The notes beneath the pieces were generated by a model. It saw only the letters and a list, made by a program, of their open reading frames with translations, was not told where the DNA came from and ran no database searches. From a virus (Duplodnaviria; Caudoviricetes): a stretch of DNA of 57,828 bases. The position numbers were made by a program, and so were the translations under genes. Shown one piece after another: positions 1,088 to 57,828 of the stretch (positions are counted from its first letter, which is position 1; every line of letters begins with the position of its first letter). The stretch spans positions 1 through 57,828 of IMG/VR virus record IMGVR_UViG_3300049795_000023. One strand, given 5' to 3'.

Positions 1088-1170
1088 CTAAACGAAAATA
1101 TCAAGCTAAACGAAAAGATCAAGCTAAACGAAAAGATCAAGCTAAACGAAAAGATCAAGCTAAACGAAAA
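1088..1170. repeat. 18-bp tandem repeat CTAAACGAAAAGATCAAG, about 4.6 copies (iteron-like)
   Basis: Read directly; core CTAAACGAAAA also dispersed at ~260-510. Confidence 0.95.
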
Positions 1171-1984: not shown

Positions 1985-4555
1985 TCAATCAAAAGCGTCA
2001 ATGACTGATTTTTCCGTTTGACCACCATCGCGTAAACGGATACCTCTACGCAAACGAGTACCGTCACTGTCTCTAGCTGCAGGGAAGCGACTGTCTAATT
2101 TTCGGCTTAGGGAAGTGGCGTTCTTTATGTAGGTTAACAGCCCGCGTTCCTTAGCGAAAAATTCCCATGATTTCCACAGATTGTTTGATCTTTCCATATA
2201 GCCTTCCCCAACGTCACAGCACTCATCCAGCCATTCAGCAAGCAGGTCCATGTCTGACCGATAGGCTTCACGAGCAGCCTTAACGCAGGATGGCTGGGCC
2301 AGGCCCTGGCCAAAGTAAAGCATCGCCCCCTCTACGCACCAGGCTAGGACCCCTTCAAGCTCTCCTGCAAGCTTTGATTCACGATCTGGATCTTTTGCAA
2401 TCCATATGTCGGATTCAAAGTTCCTCAAGAAGGGAATCAGCGTCAAGCGCCGCCATATGCCGGTGTCCGATCCCTTGACGATTGGCTTGTGATTTGTGGG
2501 TAAGAAAACGACCCATGACGGCATGATCTCGATCGACGCCAGCGCGTGCACCCCGCGGGCCGTGATCGCATCGCCCCCGGACATGCTCTTCACAGCCCCT
2601 TCCCGCAATTCGCCGTTCTCATCCGGCTCGTTCACATAGACCATGCGCGCTCCCTTGAGCCTGACCAGGTCTTCCCTTGGGCCACCGGCCGACGCCCCCA
2701 TCTTGCTATCGGCGACAAACGTACCGGCCTCCGCCGCCCGGGCGTAGCTCCCGAACATCCGGCGAATGATCCCAAGCACCGTGCTCTTTCCGTTCGATCC
2801 ATTGCCGTGCGGAATCACCATCATGTCGAGCGTCGGATCGCCCATTGCGGTGTAGCCGATCAGCCTCTGGAAGAAGTCCACCAGCTCCATGTCATTTGAG
2901 AAAACATCCAGTAGCGTCTGCTTCCACAGCTTCGCCTCAGCGGCAGCCCCTGGCCGGTAATTGGTGCTGCAGCATTTCGTAATTCGCAGACTCGGGTCGG
3001 GTACACGCAGCTCGCCAGTACGCAGATCCACCACGCCGTTTTGCACACAGAGCAGGCCGGGTTTCTGATCGAGATTTTCCGCAGGCACCATGACCCTGGG
3101 GTCCGATACGGCCAGGGCGATCATGTTGTGCACCATGCGTACCTGCTGACACAACGCGCAGAACTCAAAGAACGCTCCCGCGTCCCGGTGCTGCCCGGCT
3201 TCTTTCGGCAATTCGCGAATTGTCTCCTTCGCGTACCACTCGATCTCAACGCGCGTGGTAGCTCGCCAATACACCCCCGTCCAGACATGCCATTGCGCCA
3301 TCTCGGGTACATACATCAAGGTGCTACCCCACTGGTCAAGCATCCTCTCCATCATCCCGAATTCGGTCAGTGGCCTGGCCATCCGCACGACGGGGATGTG
3401 AACTTCAGGCGGCGCAATCAGCTTGCGGATCTGCCCGAGCGGAAGCTTGATATTCAGATTCCAGAATCGGTCTTTAAGATCGGCGGCGAGCGCTTCACGC
3501 TCGATGTCGGTCAGCCGATCGTCGCGCGCTATCTCTGCGCAGACCTTCTCACGTAATTCGAAATCATCGACAGCAGCGACGACACGCGCTTTCCACTCGC
3601 GCAGTCCTTCATAACGTGCAGCAACCTGAGCGACCTTACCATGCTTGAGCAAATAAGCTGCAGTGATCGGGCGACCGCGGAAGCGCCCGAAGCCGGACCA
3701 TTTGGTATCGACAACATCGTCTCCAACATACGCATTTGACTTGCCATCTGGGCCAGTCGTATACCGCTTGGACCATTCGCGCCAGATTTCAAGAGATGCC
3801 GCACTTCCCCCGAACTCGTGATGTAGTGCCTGACCTGCCCAAATCCACTCTTGATAGGAGCAGTTCGGGTCCATCGCCCCGAGCATCGCGGTTGCTTGTT
3901 CAATTGATAGACCGATGGGAGGCGAAGCGATCCAGTTTTCGTCGTTTGCGGAACTGCCGCCCGTGGACGAGCCCTGGCCAAAGTAGTTTTCATAAAGTCG
4001 CCTGATCGTGTCGTTTAGAGGTGCTACCTGTCGGTCCCAGCCCCAGGCCGACCAGCCGGGCAGCACGTTGCCGGTGACGGTCAGGTATCCGCTGCCATGG
4101 AAGACCTCCAGCGATACCTCGGCCTTGATGTCCTTGCGGTCGGGCAGCGACCCCAGGAAGAAGGCCCGCACCCCGCTGCCGCTGGGCGAGAACTCAGCGT
4201 AGGTGCCTTGCAGCACGCCCAGTACCCGCGGATCGACGACGCCGTCAAGCACGCAATCATCGAAATCGAGCCCGACGATTCCATTGCTGGCGATCATGGC
4301 CAGGCCAACGCCGGTGTACTTGTTCCGGCTCGATACCACAGCGCAGGCGCGGTCCAGGCTTACCAATGAGCCCAGGTCTTCAGGCGTGCCCTGGCCGCCT
4401 TCGCGCACTTTGCCAGAAGCGTAATAAGGGATCTTGGGGGGCTTGCGGCCGGGTTCTGCTGGCATCAATCGCCAGACCAGCCAGGTGGGTAGTTTGGCCA
4501 GGGCCTGCGGCAGCGCAGGGGCGTGGAATGAATGGTTAAGTGGAATTCCGCTCAC
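1985..4555 (-). CDS. DNA primase/helicase (AEP-like N-terminus, PriCT-2, D5/P4-type SF3 helicase)
   Basis: GLDFDDC and EFSPSGSG primase motifs, YQEWIWAGQALH (PriCT-2), Walker A GNGSNGKST, PTNHKP and WRRL; start moved to GTG 4555 after a GGAG RBS (ORF track gives 4603). Confidence 0.92.
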   Translation of the reverse strand: MSGIPLNHSFHAPALPQALAKLPTWLVWRLMPAEPGRKPPKIPYYASGKVREGGQGTPEDLGSLVSLDRACAVVSSRNKYTGVGLAMIASNGIVGLDFDDCVLDGVVDPRVLGVLQGTYAEFSPSGSGVRAFFLGSLPDRKDIKAEVSLEVFHGSGYLTVTGNVLPGWSAWGWDRQVAPLNDTIRRLYENYFGQGSSTGGSSANDENWIASPPIGLSIEQATAMLGAMDPNCSYQEWIWAGQALHHEFGGSAASLEIWREWSKRYTTGPDGKSNAYVGDDVVDTKWSGFGRFRGRPITAAYLLKHGKVAQVAARYEGLREWKARVVAAVDDFELREKVCAEIARDDRLTDIEREALAADLKDRFWNLNIKLPLGQIRKLIAPPEVHIPVVRMARPLTEFGMMERMLDQWGSTLMYVPEMAQWHVWTGVYWRATTRVEIEWYAKETIRELPKEAGQHRDAGAFFEFCALCQQVRMVHNMIALAVSDPRVMVPAENLDQKPGLLCVQNGVVDLRTGELRVPDPSLRITKCCSTNYRPGAAAEAKLWKQTLLDVFSNDMELVDFFQRLIGYTAMGDPTLDMMVIPHGNGSNGKSTVLGIIRRMFGSYARAAEAGTFVADSKMGASAGGPREDLVRLKGARMVYVNEPDENGELREGAVKSMSGGDAITARGVHALASIEIMPSWVVFLPTNHKPIVKGSDTGIWRRLTLIPFLRNFESDIWIAKDPDRESKLAGELEGVLAWCVEGAMLYFGQGLAQPSCVKAAREAYRSDMDLLAEWLDECCDVGEGYMERSNNLWKSWEFFAKERGLLTYIKNATSLSRKLDSRFPAARDSDGTRLRRGIRLRDGGQTEKSVIDAFD

Positions 4556-44420: not shown

Positions 44421-45688
44421 GAGCCATCGAGCGTGGCGCTTTGGCGATTACCACTGCTGTCGAAGGTTGTGAGCACCCGGTACTTCGAGCCGTCAACAGA
44501 CTTGAAGCCTTCCGTTGCGCTGCCGGCGCCCGTCGTGCGCCCGGTCGTAGCTGCAAGGATGATTCGCAAGACATCGGCAAACGCGTGTCCACCTTCGAGC
44601 GTCCGCGTCATCAGCTCGTCGACAATTTCGCCAGCTGTCGGGCAATCACCGCCACCGGCCGAAGCGCTAATTCTGAAGTCCTGACTGATATCGCGCACGA
44701 CTGCAGCGCTTATGGCAAAGCCCTGTGTGCTGTCAAAGCTGACGGCGTTATACAGCGCAAAATCCTGGCCAATGTCGATCTGGACGCCCGTTTGCAGCGC
44801 GAAGCCCTGAGCACAATCGACGCCGACCGCGTTGTAAACCGCGAAGTCCTGAGTGCAGTCGACGCTAAGCGTGGCGCGTACCGCGAAATCTTGGGCAAGG
44901 TCGACGCTTACTGAGCCGGTGGCGTCAATGTCGAAGTCTTGCGCAGCGTCGAGCGTTACGGCATTCAGCACGGCAAAGCTACCGCTCACATCTGCCGTTA
45001 CTGAAGTGTAGACCGCGAAATCCTGAGCCACGTCAACGGCTACTGCGCTAAGCACTGCAAAGCTGCCGCTCACATCAACTGTTACTGACGTGTAGACTGC
45101 AAATCCTTGCGTCACGTCGACGTTAACTGCATTTTGAACCGCGAATCCCTGCACGGCATCGACCGTCACAGCATTCTGAACAGCGAACCCCTGAACGGCA
45201 TCGACCGTCACAGCGTTCTGCGCTGCAAAGCTGCCGCTCACATCGACCGTTACTGATGTGTAGACTGCAAAGCTGCCGCTCACATCGACTGTTACTGAGT
45301 TGTAGACTGTAAAGCCCTGAACTATGTCAACGAAAATATCGCCGACGACAAATTCAACAGTCAGCGCGCCCAGATTCGTGACGATGGGGACCGCGGGGTC
45401 GTATTCCCACAGATCGCCGACAAGGTAGTAAGTGCCGTCTGCTCCGGGCGTATAAACCAGCGTCAGGTCTTCTGCGACCTCGACCGTCCCGGAACTTGGC
45501 CAGGACGTTATTTCAAATCTATATTCCTTGGCTGCATCTGCCGGCAAGGACAGGCTTGCGTAGACGAATGACGGATTGATGCCGCCGCCCCCGGCAGCTA
45601 TCGCATCACCGCGAACGCCAAAACCGTCGTAAAGAGATACGACGGTTTTGCCCGAAATCAGGCTGAGGATGTCGACGCGAAATGTCAC
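44417..45688 (-). CDS. structural protein with about 16 x 14-aa repeats
   Basis: VDxxQxFAVxxxVT repeats. Confidence 0.8.
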   Translation of the reverse strand: MTFRVDILSLISGKTVVSLYDGFGVRGDAIAAGGGGINPSFVYASLSLPADAAKEYRFEITSWPSSGTVEVAEDLTLVYTPGADGTYYLVGDLWEYDPAVPIVTNLGALTVEFVVGDIFVDIVQGFTVYNSVTVDVSGSFAVYTSVTVDVSGSFAAQNAVTVDAVQGFAVQNAVTVDAVQGFAVQNAVNVDVTQGFAVYTSVTVDVSGSFAVLSAVAVDVAQDFAVYTSVTADVSGSFAVLNAVTLDAAQDFDIDATGSVSVDLAQDFAVRATLSVDCTQDFAVYNAVGVDCAQGFALQTGVQIDIGQDFALYNAVSFDSTQGFAISAAVVRDISQDFRISASAGGGDCPTAGEIVDELMTRTLEGGHAFADVLRIILAATTGRTTGAGSATEGFKSVDGSKYRVLTTFDSSGNRQSATLDGS

Positions 45689-45999: not shown

Positions 46000-46464
46000 T
46001 TAACGCTCAAGCACGTAGATCGTCGCGCTGTAGGTGAGCGAATCTGACGGCGCTGTCAGCTTGCCGACGATCGTAGTGTTGCCCTGGTTCGCCTTCGGCC
46101 GGCAGATTTCAGGAAACCACTGGATATAGCCGGCGCGCACATTGAAGACGTGTTCCGTGAGCGCAACCAGTGTGCCAGAGCTGGCCTGGGTCGTATTCGC
46201 AACCTCAGCCGTAAACCCAGCGGCAGCGTCGTTCGGTTCCATCGGAATAGGCGTGGGGCCAGACCCGCCCGAACCGCTGGTGGCATTGCCGCGCCCGATG
46301 CTCAGGCGAATCTGTTCGTCCTGAGCATCGCCGCTGTCTGATGTCTGACCAATCTCGAAGCCAATGATCTCGATGGGTTTGTCGTCAGCCGGTGTCAGCT
46401 CGAACAGATCAACTGCGGCGGTGACCGCTACGGCTTGCAGGACGACGGTGTAAACGCGTGGCAT
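46000..46464 (-). CDS. beta-rich hypothetical (structural) protein
   Basis: GAAGGGG RBS before ATG 46464. Confidence 0.7.
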   Translation of the reverse strand: MPRVYTVVLQAVAVTAAVDLFELTPADDKPIEIIGFEIGQTSDSGDAQDEQIRLSIGRGNATSGSGGSGPTPIPMEPNDAAAGFTAEVANTTQASSGTLVALTEHVFNVRAGYIQWFPEICRPKANQGNTTIVGKLTAPSDSLTYSATIYVLER

Positions 46465-51342: not shown

Positions 51343-53520
51343 TTAATTGTTCATGTAATTCGACCTTACGACGCGTCTGGCAGGGGCCGGTTTAGGCGTT
51401 GCCGGGGTGATTTGCCTGTTTTTCCAGTCGATCCGCGTGTTTTCCTGCAATTCGCGCCGAATGTCGGACGTTACGCAGTCGCTGTTGTCTGGCATTGGCT
51501 CTGCCCAGCTCGGGGGATTTAGCCAGGAGATGTGATCGACCCCCAGGCGCAGGCAGCATGCCCTGATGTAGACCGAGCAGTCAAACGCCTCGTTGCGCGC
51601 TCGAATCTGCACCCATGTACCATTTTCCTGGCGTATTTCCGATCCAAATTCATCGAGCATGGACTGCGTCATCCAGGCTGGAATATGGATGTAGCCTGGC
51701 CCGGGTGTCGGTCGCTTCAATCCCTTGTCTACAGCGTCCTTTAGCTTGTTTGAATTCAACCTGAACAGCTGGATGTCTCCTACTTCCTTGCCAGAGCGCC
51801 CACCAACCCATGTTTCAACAATCATGGCCATGACTGAATCTGATTTTTTACCTTCACCTTTGACCAGGATGAAGCGATCCCCAAAGCCTTCGGCGCGCGC
51901 CCGGCGCGACCAGTCGTATGCTTTGTCCGTCACCCCGTCTTCGCCGCCCGAGTCGACCGCAGTCATGCGCACGCGCAGCTCAATCCCTTCACACTGAGTG
52001 CGGTAGGTAGCCCGCAAGACCTTTTCCGTAATCAAATCCCAGTCTTCTGCGTAGCGGGCAGGGTCTAACGGCGCTTTTGGACCGTCCGGACCCTCAGTGC
52101 CCTCGCGCATTGACTCACGAATTGAAAAACGATCAATTGGCCACTGTTCCAGATAAGGCCCAACTGCGTGCACCTGCACCACAAAATGAGGGTTTCGGCC
52201 GCCCTGAATGTCCACAGCAGCTGCAATAAATCGCGTTTCTTCCGGGCAAACGTAGCGAATCAGGCCAGGTTCCTTGCGCTGCGCAGGGTCTAACGCAGTG
52301 CGTTTGGCCTCCAGCAGCCGGCGGCTCATGTAGCAAGCCCCCTGGTCAACGTTCGTCGTGGTTTTCAGCTGCGTTTCCTCGCCGGTGACCGCGTAATGAC
52401 GCAAGGCGTTAAGGTGCTTCTCCAGCAATGACGCCCAGGACTGGTATGCCGCTGCAATACCGCCAAGCCAGAACGTTGCCGATGCGGATTCACGTGGCGT
52501 GCCGATAAGCTCGTCTCTGCACGTCAGTATGTGACCTTCGCGCAGCCACCGGCCGCGTAAATTCATTTCGTATTTGGCTTTCGGTCCGATTTGACAGCGG
52601 TTGTGCGGGCAGATAATGCGATTGTGTTCCTGCACAATCGTGTAAATGTTCGCATCTCGAATTGTCTCGATCAGAACGTCGTCAGGCGGCAGCTCGAACA
52701 GACTCAAATCTGGTTTTGGCTCGAACCAGTAGCCGCAAAGCGGGCATTTCCAGTACCAACGACGCCTGTCACCGGCGTTATACAGCCCGATGATCCCCGT
52801 CACGTTGGGGCCTTCGTGCGCACCGCTGGGAATAAAATTCGGGTCTGTGATTTCTCCGCCCGGCGATGATTCGGCCAGGGCCATACCTCTGGATTTGTAG
52901 GTCTGCGTCCGCTTCAACAGCAGGTTGAACAGCGGGCCTTCGCCGTCAACGTCTTCTCGATTCACGATCCGATCCAGATCGGTTACCGCGCCATAGCGGA
53001 AGCTGGAGGATGACAAATTGGCGATTGTTGGCCAGCCAATCTTTAGCAATGTCCCGTTGCGGAACACCTTGTCATAAACGTTGTCGGCATGCTTCGACGG
53101 CGTCAGCTCTGCCTTCAGGTTGTCCGACGCGAGTGCTCTCTTTATGTCTGACTTCGAGAAGTCGCGAGCTTTCACCTCAGTCATTTGCACAATCAACATA
53201 TCGCCCGGGTCACTGGTCACTGCGTGCGTAAGCAGCCCCAGCAATAGCGCCGCGGATTTGCCTGTGCGTGCCGGCCCGACGAATATTTCAGACTCGTGTC
53301 GGCGAGACATCAGCACGTCCATCGGCTCGACCATGTAAGGCGTGCGGCTTGAATCCCAGAATCCGGCTACTTGGCCAGGGGAACTGAAATACAAATTCTG
53401 CGCCGCACTCTGTGACACCGTCAGCCGCTTTGACGGCAGCATGGCCTTCCAGCCAAACGCCACATCATGTGCAGCTCGACGCCCATGGTCAACATCGTCA
53501 ATCATCGAATCCGAGTTCAT
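51343..53520 (-). CDS. terL: terminase large subunit, lambda gpA family
   Basis: TPYMVEPMD, Walker A ARTGKS, GDRRRWYWKCPLC, AAVDIQ, VDSGG, RNEAFDC.VY. Confidence 0.93.
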   Translation of the reverse strand: MNSDSMIDDVDHGRRAAHDVAFGWKAMLPSKRLTVSQSAAQNLYFSSPGQVAGFWDSSRTPYMVEPMDVLMSRRHESEIFVGPARTGKSAALLLGLLTHAVTSDPGDMLIVQMTEVKARDFSKSDIKRALASDNLKAELTPSKHADNVYDKVFRNGTLLKIGWPTIANLSSSSFRYGAVTDLDRIVNREDVDGEGPLFNLLLKRTQTYKSRGMALAESSPGGEITDPNFIPSGAHEGPNVTGIIGLYNAGDRRRWYWKCPLCGYWFEPKPDLSLFELPPDDVLIETIRDANIYTIVQEHNRIICPHNRCQIGPKAKYEMNLRGRWLREGHILTCRDELIGTPRESASATFWLGGIAAAYQSWASLLEKHLNALRHYAVTGEETQLKTTTNVDQGACYMSRRLLEAKRTALDPAQRKEPGLIRYVCPEETRFIAAAVDIQGGRNPHFVVQVHAVGPYLEQWPIDRFSIRESMREGTEGPDGPKAPLDPARYAEDWDLITEKVLRATYRTQCEGIELRVRMTAVDSGGEDGVTDKAYDWSRRARAEGFGDRFILVKGEGKKSDSVMAMIVETWVGGRSGKEVGDIQLFRLNSNKLKDAVDKGLKRPTPGPGYIHIPAWMTQSMLDEFGSEIRQENGTWVQIRARNEAFDCSVYIRACCLRLGVDHISWLNPPSWAEPMPDNSDCVTSDIRRELQENTRIDWKNRQITPATPKPAPARRVVRSNYMNN

Positions 53521-54023
53521 GGCTGCGCTTCCTCATCTTCGCCTTCCAGGAACATGTCTCGGAGCTTGTTTGCGAGGTTCTGCTTTGCCGAATCAATGAA
53601 CGCGCGAATCCCTTCGACCAGGTCAAGGTCGAGCCCAAACTTGGCTTCCAGTTCGTCTGGGATTGCATCTAGCGACTGCGAACACATGGCAAACGCCCGC
53701 GTTGATTTGAGCTGCACGTCTTCACGGTAGACCAGGCGACCGGCCATCACGCCGGTATCCATCTCAGCCTTTTCGGCAGCTGCTGTTTCCCTGCGCGCCC
53801 GTCCTTTCTCGTACTTCTGGTATTCCGTATACCCCAGGTCGGACAGTTCGTCGTAGGACTTTTCAGAGCGCTTCTTCCTTGCGCCCGCACGCGATTTTTT
53901 ACCGCTGCTTCCCATTGCGATGAGCTGGTCTGCAGGGCTGTTGAACAGCATTTCTGGATGCTGTAGCGCCGGATTGAATATCGAATCAAGGTTGTTCATA
54001 TAAAGGCCACTGGTTGTGTCCAT
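53517..54023 (-). CDS. terS: terminase small subunit
   Basis: ATGA-coupled to TerL; RARRE...AE.AE......G.LV and LDAIPD.L pattern; start may be 53999. Confidence 0.8.
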   Translation of the reverse strand: MDTTSGLYMNNLDSIFNPALQHPEMLFNSPADQLIAMGSSGKKSRAGARKKRSEKSYDELSDLGYTEYQKYEKGRARRETAAAEKAEMDTGVMAGRLVYREDVQLKSTRAFAMCSQSLDAIPDELEAKFGLDLDLVEGIRAFIDSAKQNLANKLRDMFLEGEDEEAQP

Positions 54024-54144
54024 AGGATTGGCGCATTTTATTGGTGTTTGGAATTAGTGGAAACCCTTATTTTGGCCAGGGTCGATTTCGTTTTCAGTCC
54101 AAAAATAAGCATCTGAATGAAAATCACATAAATTTGCGTTTAAA

Positions 54145-54187
54145 GCGCTCTCCGTTACCCGCATGAAAAGCATTCATACAGGGTCCC
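54145..54187 (-). other. candidate cos packaging site (cosQ/cosN-like)
   Basis: Minus strand GGGACCC-N18-GCGGGTAACGGAGAGCGC about 120 bp upstream of terS, resembling lambda cosQ GGGTCCT followed by GC-rich cosN. Confidence 0.55.
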
Positions 54188-54398
54188 CTGGGGTAAACCA
54201 CTATTTACTAATCTAATGGATCAGAAACGAATGTGATAGATCAGATCTGATTCAAAAACATTCAAATTCTGATCGCAAATTTCAAAAAGCCATTCGCGAA
54301 GATCTGAACGTTGCTCTAAACCATATTCCTATATGAATCGCATAGATCAAGAATCAACCGAGAAGTTCAAAGCATCATGAAAACCATTCATGATGAAG

Positions 54399-54530
54399 CA
54401 CCCACCACCATGCACCCACCACCATGCACCCACCACCATGCACCCACCACCATGCACCCACCACCATGCACCCACCACCATGCACCCACCACCATGCACC
54501 CACCACCATGCACCCACCACCATGCACCCA
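54399..54530. repeat. 14-bp tandem repeat CACCCACCACCATG x9.4
   Basis: Nine identical units plus a partial. Confidence 0.98.
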
Positions 54531-54626
54531 GCTCGGCCATACCTATGAAGTGTGGAGAATTCCACTTGCGAGACAATTCCAATTTGGATTAGAATTGCTC
54601 ATCGCAAACCACTGAGACACCCCACC

Positions 54627-54836
54627 ATGGCCCTAATCCTCAATCTGACGAAGACAGCCGATCACGCAGTACGTTATGCGTCGACCATCTCCAAGCTGTC
54701 CACATTGCGCCGCACTGCACCAGTCCAGATGCATGCAGCTGTCGAGCAAGCACTGATTGCCCGTTTGCAAGATGATGCTTTGCGCGATGAACGCGAGCGT
54801 AAAGGCTGGGGCGTCCTCCACCCCCTTGATATTTGA
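54627..54836 (+). CDS. small early hypothetical protein
   Basis: ATG 54627, 69 aa. Confidence 0.6.
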   Translation: MALILNLTKTADHAVRYASTISKLSTLRRTAPVQMHAAVEQALIARLQDDALRDERERKGWGVLHPLDI

Positions 54837-54840
54837 AGCA

Positions 54841-54908
54841 AACCTAGGGTTCACCCGGGATACGAATTAAGAATTAACAATTCATAATTGACTCACGCAA
54901 ACAGGAGC
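54841..54908 (+). promoter_or_regulatory. early promoter/RBS cassette copy 1
   Basis: AACCTAGGGTTCACCCGGGATACGAATT...CATAATTGACT...AAACAGGAGC. Confidence 0.75.
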
Positions 54909-54915
54909 AAGCAAC

Positions 54916-55092
54916 ATGCCGACAGACTACACCGCCGCTTCGATTAGCCGTTACCTTAGCATCCTGCAGCGGAGCCGCATCCGGTACGCCGCCGCCCTTG
55001 AAACGAATGACACGAACGTGATGCTTGCCCAAAATTGCAAAATCAAAACGTGCCTTTTGCTACTGGAAGAACTGGGTGTCTGTCCACTCTAA
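54916..55092 (+). CDS. 58-aa hypothetical protein (not in ORF track)
   Basis: AGGAG RBS; follows cassette 1. Confidence 0.7.
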   Translation: MPTDYTAASISRYLSILQRSRIRYAAALETNDTNVMLAQNCKIKTCLLLLEELGVCPL

Positions 55093-55104: not shown

Positions 55105-55172
55105 AACCTAGGGTTCACCCGGGATACGAATTTAGAATTGTCGATCAATAATTGACTTATCGAAACAGGAGC
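55105..55172 (+). promoter_or_regulatory. early promoter/RBS cassette copy 2
   Basis: 28 bp identical to copy 1, then AATAATTGACT...AAACAGGAGC. Confidence 0.75.
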
Positions 55173-55179
55173 CACCACC

Positions 55180-55320
55180 ATGATCCGTCTTATCGTACTA
55201 ATCGCAGTAGTTGCAGCAGCTACCATCATCTGTCTTGACTACGCAACTGATGTGCAAGCTAACGCTTCCCGCACAACAGCATCTGCACTTAGCACTCGCA
55301 TGAATCAGGCCGGACTCTAA
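55180..55320 (+). CDS. 46-aa membrane-anchored peptide (not in ORF track)
   Basis: AGGAG RBS; MIRLIVLIAVVAAATIICL. Confidence 0.7.
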   Translation: MIRLIVLIAVVAAATIICLDYATDVQANASRTTASALSTRMNQAGL

Positions 55321-57443: not shown

Positions 57444-57486
57444 CAAAAAGCAAAATGCCCGACTAGTTCGGGCTTTTTGCTTTTTG
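57444..57486 (+). terminator. Rho-independent terminator
   Basis: CAAAAAGCAAAATGCCCGA-CTAGT-TCGGGCTTTTTGCTTTTTG. Confidence 0.8.
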
Positions 57487-57565: not shown

Positions 57566-57624
57566 AGGGGCTTCAGCTCCTCGCATTCCACCGGATGTGA
57601 GGAGCTGAAGCCCCTTTTGCTTTT
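57566..57624 (+). terminator. long hairpin terminator abutting the tandem array
   Basis: AGGGGCTTCAGCTCCTCGCAT...ATGTGAGGAGCTGAAGCCCCT then TTTGCTTTT. Confidence 0.8.
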
Positions 57625-57828
57625 CAGCGCCGGGCGCCAGCTGGCTGGAGTTCAGCGCCGGGCGCCAGCTGGCTGGAGTTCAGCGCCGGGCGCCAGCAGG
57701 ACAGCGCCGGGCGCCAGCTGGCTGGAGTTCAGCGCCGGGCGCCAGCAGGACAGCGCCGGGCGCCAGCTGGCTGGAGTTCAGCGCCGGGCGCCAGCAGGAC
57801 AGCGCCGGGCGCCAGCTGGCTGGAGTTC
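57625..57828. repeat. tandem repeat A-A-B-A-B-A-B-A; last 127 bp duplicate positions 1-127
   Basis: Read directly. Confidence 0.97.

Follow-up and report, generated by a model that had tools for sequence, protein, structure and literature searches.

We analysed the whole of the IMG/VR record IMGVR_UViG_3300049795_000023, a soil phage genome of 57,828 bp (hereafter the window), with respect to a perfect tandem repeat at 54398..54530 on the minus strand, which we call array A. Array A was tentatively read as a young non-coding minisatellite in a slot kept in its clade, with the right end of the DNA on one side and the first early promoter on the other, and we put the probability of this reading at roughly 0.45. 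The units of the array are identical to one another, and the same slot in relatives holds arrays of unrelated sequence. We infer that array A arose by slippage and that its sequence has no specific function of its own; any selected role probably depends on its repetitiveness or length and not on this particular sequence.

The 14-bp unit of array A was found 9.5 times by Tandem Repeats Finder, with 100% matches, no indels and a score of 266, and a second repeat search agreed. The unit reads ATGGTGGTGGGTGC on the minus strand and GCACCCACCACCAT on the plus strand, the latter being composed of 8 C, 4 A, 1 G and 1 T. An earlier note on this DNA had described nine copies of the octamer GGTGGTGG on the minus strand of this array near a predicted cos site, and all nine were recovered, with starts from 54402 to 54514 at 14-bp spacing; elsewhere in the window the octamer was present three times on the minus strand (55172, 31730 and 48347) and twice on the plus strand. 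In X1, the likely source run, two short unitigs within array A had depths of 189 and 156, and the flanking contigs 38.2 and 30.8. Because the inner unitigs thus had 4-6 times the depth of the flanks, the data fit an array that is truly multi-copy, with roughly 6-9 copies, although assembly from short reads leaves the precise count uncertain. A search of IMG/VR with two array A units gave no match, and no further contig there carries both; a 22-mer of the array, allowed up to two mismatches, was found in none of 61 sampled Burkholderiales genomes.

Replication slippage in the DNA of bacteria and phages gives rise to minisatellites (variable number tandem repeats). Array A resembles them in its head-to-tail short units of very high identity (100% over 9.5 copies), its non-coding place and its quick replacement between relatives. 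The non-coding character is supported by the period of 14, which is not a multiple of 3, and by an open reading frame (ORF) across the array that has neither a family match nor a counterpart in the related Curvibacter phage PCA1.

The position of the array was established relative to the cos site. Contigs of relatives stop 42-155 nt upstream of terS, the small terminase gene, with the common end motif G(C/A)GCAGAGGC(C/G)CG; this motif is the physical contig end in L013, L015, L016, L019, L028 and L032, and internal copies were found in eight relatives. In the window it marks the cos core (cleavage region) at 54145..54162 on the minus strand, where the terminase-side end begins at about 54159. 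Contigs of runs X2 and X4 both stop exactly at 54159, no more than about a base from the homologous ends in relatives. These two observations independently supported the location of cos predicted in the earlier note, and they place the start of array A about 238 bp inside the right, non-terminase end of the DNA, which we take from lambda to be also the end that enters the cell first. A conserved GGGGACCCT box, cosQ-like by position only, lies about 25 nt outside the cos core (54180..54193, minus strand); it is exact in PCA1, L011, L021, L092, L093 and the window, and varied in L014 (GGGGGCCCCT), L020 (GGGCCCCT) and L091 (GGGGGGCCCC).

The same slot was then compared among the nine lineages for which both cos and DNA on its right-end side were at hand. 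A perfect or near-perfect array was found about 56-240 bp beyond cos in six of the nine, each with a different unit: 14 bp x 9.5 in the window, 6 bp x 6.2, (GCTGGT)n, in PCA1, 8 bp x 15.8 in L014, 21 bp x 16.7 in L020, 9 bp x 8.2 together with a triplet tract, (TGC/TGG)n, in L021/L022, and 36 bp x at least 2.7 in L092. The other three lineages (L011/G065, L091 and L093) had no array beyond cos. Equivalent arrays near cos, for which the earlier note had proposed a search in relatives, are therefore present in most lineages, with unrelated sequences. Among seven array units no common motif exceeded what shuffled units gave; the best 5-mer occurred in three arrays, and this was reached in 220 of 2000 shuffles. 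In a wider screen, 117 loci with a match to the large terminase subunit (TerL) were collected, of which 34 were too short and 83, with at least 500 bp upstream, were kept; arrays upstream of TerL were found in six of the 83, five of them close relatives (TerL identity of at least 47%) and one distant (L050).

An array, GTGCAGGTG (9 bp x 19.4), is also present in Acidovorax phage ACF1, where TerL lies to one side of it and the first early promoter to the other. The entire ACF1 record contains neither a cos motif nor a TerS homologue, and since cos is absent from the record its array cannot be oriented relative to cos. This 'complete genome' record (MZ547449.1) begins inside the 9-bp array, and it is probably a draft without approximately 1 kb at the junction. 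The TerL of L020 is the nearest to that of ACF1 (69% nucleotide identity over 95%), and the arrays of the two are unrelated. The passages of the PCA1 and ACF1 papers that were available make no mention of termini or repeats.

Array A lies in a stretch of about 460 bp, from the cos cut to the first early ORF, without a convincing gene. This ORF (54627..54836, plus strand, 69 aa, no family) has the start context ACACCCCACCATG, which is 85% identical to the array A unit, and with the start context of the gene at 55180 included the identity ranges from 85 to 92%; a local source for the repeat therefore exists, in line with the alternative offered in the earlier note, namely slippage from the start context near 55173-55182. 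In the proposed course of events, a duplication of a local CCACCACCATG-type start-codon context would have been the seed, and the array would have grown by replication slippage or unequal exchange between units. Such slippage or exchange would keep the copies identical and swap units quickly between lineages, and the array would persist in the untranslated leader of about 460 bp.

Several observations weigh against a minisatellite without further function. Arrays recur in one slot beside cos in six of nine lineages of compact genomes, which is unlike a purely neutral minisatellite and argues for some selected role. The arrays of two relatives carry octamers of the Chi family, named beforehand, on the predicted strand (12:0 in L020 and 6:0 in L021/L022), and on the same strand the (GCTGGT)n array of PCA1 agrees with E. 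coli Chi in 7 of its 8 positions. In PCA1 and L021 that strand of the leader is not G-rich once the arrays are set aside, so local composition does not explain the G/T-richness of the arrays. The hallmark of a minisatellite would be copy-number polymorphism, and the contigs collapse inside array A. On the other side, the clade is array-prone in non-coding DNA generally, because lineage-specific arrays are also found at two further conserved intergenic positions, one after the early operon and one directly downstream of the late-activator gene.

The most probable of the alternatives, attractive although we hold it to be unlikely, is that array A acts as a cluster of Chi-like sites. In this reading the right end is open to host RecBCD/AddAB after cos cutting or injection, and the enzyme would move inward on the minus strand from its 3' end and meet nine GGTGGTGG within 370 bp. 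It would then switch from degradation to RecA loading, so that phage DNA is spared or recombined, and the tandem copies would offset imperfect recognition of single sites. In lambda-type packaging, terminase holds the terminase-gene end whereas the other end is open to RecBCD, and Chi is active on the terminase-sense strand (PMC12315714). The terminase-sense strand of the window is the minus strand, as the earlier note had held for the active Chi strand, and the 3' side of GGTGGTGG faces the cos end at 54159/54160, as the Chi entry rule requires. Position and strand are thus as this reading demands. The octamer GGTGGTGG also fits the experimentally established Chi of Haemophilus influenzae, GNTGGTGG, of which it is one form, and it is a computational candidate in some Enterobacterales, namely Dickeya and Edwardsiella (Buton and Bobay 2021, PMC8022716), although this exact match is to Gammaproteobacteria, another bacterial class than that of the probable host. 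Pseudomonas syringae Lz4W has GCTGGCGC as its Chi (Pavankumar et al. 2018, PMC5959072); both of these Chi forms, which the earlier note had cited, are given in the papers named.

Further support came from the relatives. The 12 octamers in the L020 array are GCTGGCGC and the six in L021/L022 are GGTGGTGG; all of them lie no more than about 430 bp from cos and are confined to the terminase-sense strand, and no other locus of the 83 exceeds two Chi-family octamers on the terminase-sense strand in the 1 kb upstream of terS. With random units drawn from three clade phage genomes as the null, and with the octamers fixed beforehand from the list in the earlier note, the chance that at least two of nine relatives' arrays carry such a word on a given strand was approximately 0.0055; this null is probably too generous, because repeats with these octamers are common in viral DNA. 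Units of 6-14 bp also pack an octamer at near maximal density. Zheng, Casjens, Davidson, Amundsen and Smith (Genome Res 2025, PMC12315714) describe lambdoid phages without Rec genes (LLS and about 70 others, and the Pseudomonas aeruginosa phage MD8) which cluster Chi in active orientation near the right end, and in one Pseudomonas phage given there all 32 GCTGGCGC are on a single strand.

However, GGTGGTGG as the Chi of the host was unsupported. An octamer of the E. coli type needs a host with RecBCD, and RecC (PF04257) was found in only 19 of the 61 sampled Burkholderiales genomes. It is present in Paraburkholderia G003 but was not found in Cupriavidus G001 or Glaciimonas G002, which hold the closest TerL relatives and have AddB-like hits. 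A Chi word is expected to be over-represented in its host and often skewed to the leading strand. Octamer statistics were computed on 880 kb of Glaciimonas and on 800 kb of the RecC-positive Burkholderiales genome G028, neither being known to be the host, and no Chi candidate emerged from either. In G028, possibly not the host, GGTGGTGG occurs once per 12 kb with a leading:lagging ratio of 41:24 and no Markov over-representation; in Glaciimonas, again possibly not the host, the ratio of 48:19 is close to a hand estimate from base skews for a G/T-rich word. GC-rich DNA commonly contains GCTGGCGC, which ranks 80th by count in G028 and is unskewed there. The top skewed octamers in these genomes were a KOPS-like word (FtsK-orienting polar sequence) and words of a repeat of about 36 nt; in the first 800 kb of G028:C1 this repeat, of which about 60 copies all share one strand, dominates among the skewed octamers, and it is possibly a large CRISPR array. 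The literature found gives no Chi sequence for Burkholderia. According to Buton and Bobay (PMC8022716), the Betaproteobacteria have no reliable E. coli-like Chi, candidates being found only in Paraburkholderia and deemed likely false positives.

The phage side likewise raised difficulties. The arrays of L014 and L092 contain no Chi-like word, the G-rich strand of the ACF1 array is inverted relative to TerL, and L255 carries GCTGGCGC upstream of TerL on the wrong strand. Tandem repeats with GCTGGTGG or GCTGGCGC are common in viral contigs of IMG/VR, with at least 119 loci each. When 80 loci per motif were analysed from scans for triple GCTGGTGG and triple GCTGGCGC, the period was divisible by 3 in 53 of 57 repeats for the former and in 59 of 63 for the latter; a lambda-type TerL locus was involved in one of 80 for triple GCTGGCGC (L255) and in none of 80 for triple GCTGGTGG, the repeats being mostly of triplet period and far from any such locus. 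Of the inference of Chi decoys in the earlier note, the place of cos, the right end as the exposed one and the strand on which Chi would be active were supported, but GGTGGTGG as the Chi of the host was not.

The comparison with LLS and its class, as PMC12315714 describes them, points both ways. The window shares with these phages the lambda-type terminase and cos, the terminase-held left end, the open right end and octamers of Chi type on the terminase-sense strand near that end. In those phages, however, which lack Rec genes and infect hosts of known Chi, 8-32 sites are dispersed over several kb, mostly in genes, and many Chi throughout the genome lie almost all on the terminase-sense strand. 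The window instead has one tandem array, perfect and non-coding, and elsewhere neither word is enriched: outside the arrays GGTGGTGG is found three times on the minus and twice on the plus strand, and GCTGGCGC three and four times, respectively. No abundant strand-biased octamer was found in the phage outside the arrays. The phage also encodes its own nuclease of the PD-(D/E)XK DUF2800 type and an Enc34/gp2.5-type single-stranded DNA-binding protein (SSB; PHROGs and Pfam). Red-, RecET- and Gam-type families had no match in PHROGs or Pfam, in agreement with the statement of the earlier note that no Gam-like gene was recognisable, although many small early ORFs match nothing at all.

A bolder version of the Chi explanation would hold for the whole clade, and we consider it doubtful. 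It states that these virulent cos-type Burkholderiales siphophages keep a guard that needs no protein, in the form of an array which packs the Chi-like word of the current host at maximal density on the 3'-ending strand just inside the exposed end. The array would switch off RecBCD/AddAB within a few hundred bases and would be rebuilt by slippage whenever the host changes, which would explain why the slot is conserved and the sequences are unrelated.

A lineage-specific array of protein-binding sites was regarded as rather improbable. The partner would be a protein of the phage that evolves quickly (the small terminase, the late activator or an early regulator, for example), and the sites would organise DNA beside cos or control the adjacent promoter P1. 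A conserved slot with lineage-specific sequence is what is expected for sites that co-evolve with their protein, and TerS is so divergent that a sequence search retrieves no relative (six pattern matches in IMG/VR, none confirmed). P1 is a sigma-70-like promoter at 54566..54595 on the plus strand (TTGCGA, an 18-nt spacer and TAGAAT; a consensus match only), and its -35 hexamer starts 36 nt past the end of array A; promoter-like sites are also found 90-195 nt past the arrays in PCA1 and ACF1. In addition, a 16-nt element at the cos cut, CATGAAAAGCATTCAT (54162..54177, plus strand, repeat family D4), has a second copy at 54376..54391 on the plus strand, 15/16 identical and 7 nt before array A. 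These near-palindromic elements, of the form CATGAAAA(G/C)CATTCAT, are the only two copies in the window and lie 214 bp apart. The arrays at the two other conserved intergenic positions also resemble clusters of binding sites.

Against binding by a protein stand the unit lengths of relatives (6, 8 and 9 bp), which are short for protein sites, the perfect identity of the array A copies and the period of 14 bp, which is out of helical phase; moreover, the partners named are only putative. The place of the array is a further difficulty. The cos of lambda comprises the sub-sites cosQ, cosN and cosB, the last with R sites for gpNu1, and the terminase-binding repeats lie between the cut at cosN and the small-terminase gene Nu1. 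The window resembles lambda in its repeated elements beside cos and in the conserved box that has a cosQ-like place outside the cut, but array A and terS lie on opposite sides of the cut, from which the array is 238 bp away, unlike cosB. The short repeat series SRL and SRR of T7, imperfect heptamers which flank its terminal repeat, offer another likeness, as they too are short direct repeats a few hundred bp from the first-entering end and upstream of early promoters; in contrast to the window, T7 has terminal direct repeats in place of cos ends, and its repeats are imperfect.

A strand-specific structure or RNA signal was judged improbable. Here the minus strand would form G-quadruplexes (with an i-motif on the plus strand), or the plus-sense transcript would carry a loading site for Rho (rut). 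The minus strand of the array has 36 two-tetrad and 7 three-tetrad pattern matches and the plus strand none, which favours the G-quadruplex alternative of the earlier note, but the minimum-free-energy fold of ViennaRNA contained none even with G-quadruplexes allowed. With 8 C and 1 G per 14 bases, the plus-sense transcript would be 57% C and 7% G, as suits a rut site; however, the sole promoter-like site on the plus strand is downstream of array A, and the arrays of relatives lack consistent G-runs or C-richness.

Coding or phase variation was found highly improbable: an ATG-started ORF of 71 aa (54377..54592, plus strand) spans array A as a His/Pro/Thr-rich peptide, each gain or loss of 14 bp would shift its frame and five of seven clade arrays have periods divisible by 3, but such an ORF is automatic because the unit is open in all six frames, and it has no PHROG or Pfam match, lies upstream of P1, lacks a good ribosome-binding site before its ATG and is probably not a gene, while the ORF over the PCA1 array is unrelated and the L014 unit gives a stop in every early-sense frame.

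A second repeat, array B, extends on the minus strand from 57625 to 57828 and continues at 1-163, with units of 21 and 28 bp alternating around the 11-bp palindrome GCGCCGGGCGC. The earlier note had stated that each of its units gives GCTGGCGC on the minus strand; 14 of the 17 minus-strand copies in the window are in array B, nine of them non-redundant once the 127-bp duplication at the ends of the record is allowed for. An oriented Chi array, as suggested for array B, fits less well than a cluster of palindromic binding sites. Although the octamer is exactly that of P. syringae, as it also is in L020, here it forms the flank of the palindrome in units of 21 and 28 bp, and the array follows two terminator-like hairpins (57460-57486 and 57568-57625). 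Arrays in the equivalent place open the sequence of the relative G064; they share the 12-mer GGCGCCAGCTGG, which is inverted there relative to primase and TerL. From its sequence, array B is perhaps a cluster of binding sites, and a candidate operator or replication origin. The array slot at the end of the early operon corresponds to 57625-57828/1-163 in the window, 1-198 in G064, 45495-45586 in G065 and 2934-3017 in the ACF1 record. As the 127-bp terminal repeat lies within array B, the circular closure of the record and the copy number of array B both rest on this repeat.

Arrays directly downstream of the late-activator gene were seen in the window (1088-1170, 18 bp x 4.6), in PCA1 (L009 1512-1580, 26 bp x 2.7) and in G065 (46297-46333, 13 bp x 2.7). 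They are mutually unrelated in sequence and may be lineage-specific regulatory sites.

Further features were noted around array A. Between cos and the array, 54219-54348 holds six GATC in 130 bp, the densest such run in the window, with a perfect 12-bp palindrome, ATCAGATCTGAT, at 54240 inside it. Beyond the first early ORF, a 78-nt element occurs at 54841-54918 and 55105-55182; the two copies are 83% identical, each precedes a small early gene and ends in AGGAG and the start codon, and they are probably early promoter/leader cassettes.

The gene content is that of a siphovirus. TerL, of the lambda gpA type, is encoded at 51343..53520 on the minus strand (phrog_15, E 1.3e-174; 40-42% identical to TerL of lambdoid phages), and TerS at 53517..54023 on the minus strand (phrog_141 and phrog_57, E about 1e-8, with a weak Pfam match to DUF1441). 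Other matches in PHROGs and Pfam were to lambda-type portal, protease, decoration and major head proteins, a tape measure protein, DNA polymerase and a primase-helicase. No integrase family was matched in PHROGs among the 72 ORFs scanned, and no tRNA gene was found in the window. The nearest isolates by TerL identity are PCA1 (49.7%) and ACF1 (47.7%), and the nearest TerL copies in bacterial genome records are those of Cupriavidus necator (56%), Glaciimonas soli (53%) and a Burkholderiaceae metagenome-assembled genome (51%). Because these isolates and genome copies come from the Burkholderiales, the host is probably a member of that order. The commonest octamer of the phage is TGGCCAGG, with 56 copies on both strands summed (e.g. 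at 54073, 53372 and 56429) as against about 4 expected under an order-2 model. Its density is 0.97/kb in the phage, 0.41/kb in G064 and 0.36/kb in G066, compared with 0.03-0.06/kb in two Burkholderiales genomes; its flanks are unconserved and it shows no strand bias.

If the arrays do act as a Chi device, they would extend the 2025 finding of Chi clusters at the right end to a compact tandem form, to phages carrying nuclease and SSB genes, and to the Betaproteobacteria, in which Chi sequences are not known and where the arrays could reveal the Chi words of the hosts. For this little-studied phage group as a whole, cos is now located to a base or two, and in most members of the clade the stretch from cos to the first early promoter retains a hypervariable repeat, both of which help to annotate relatives.

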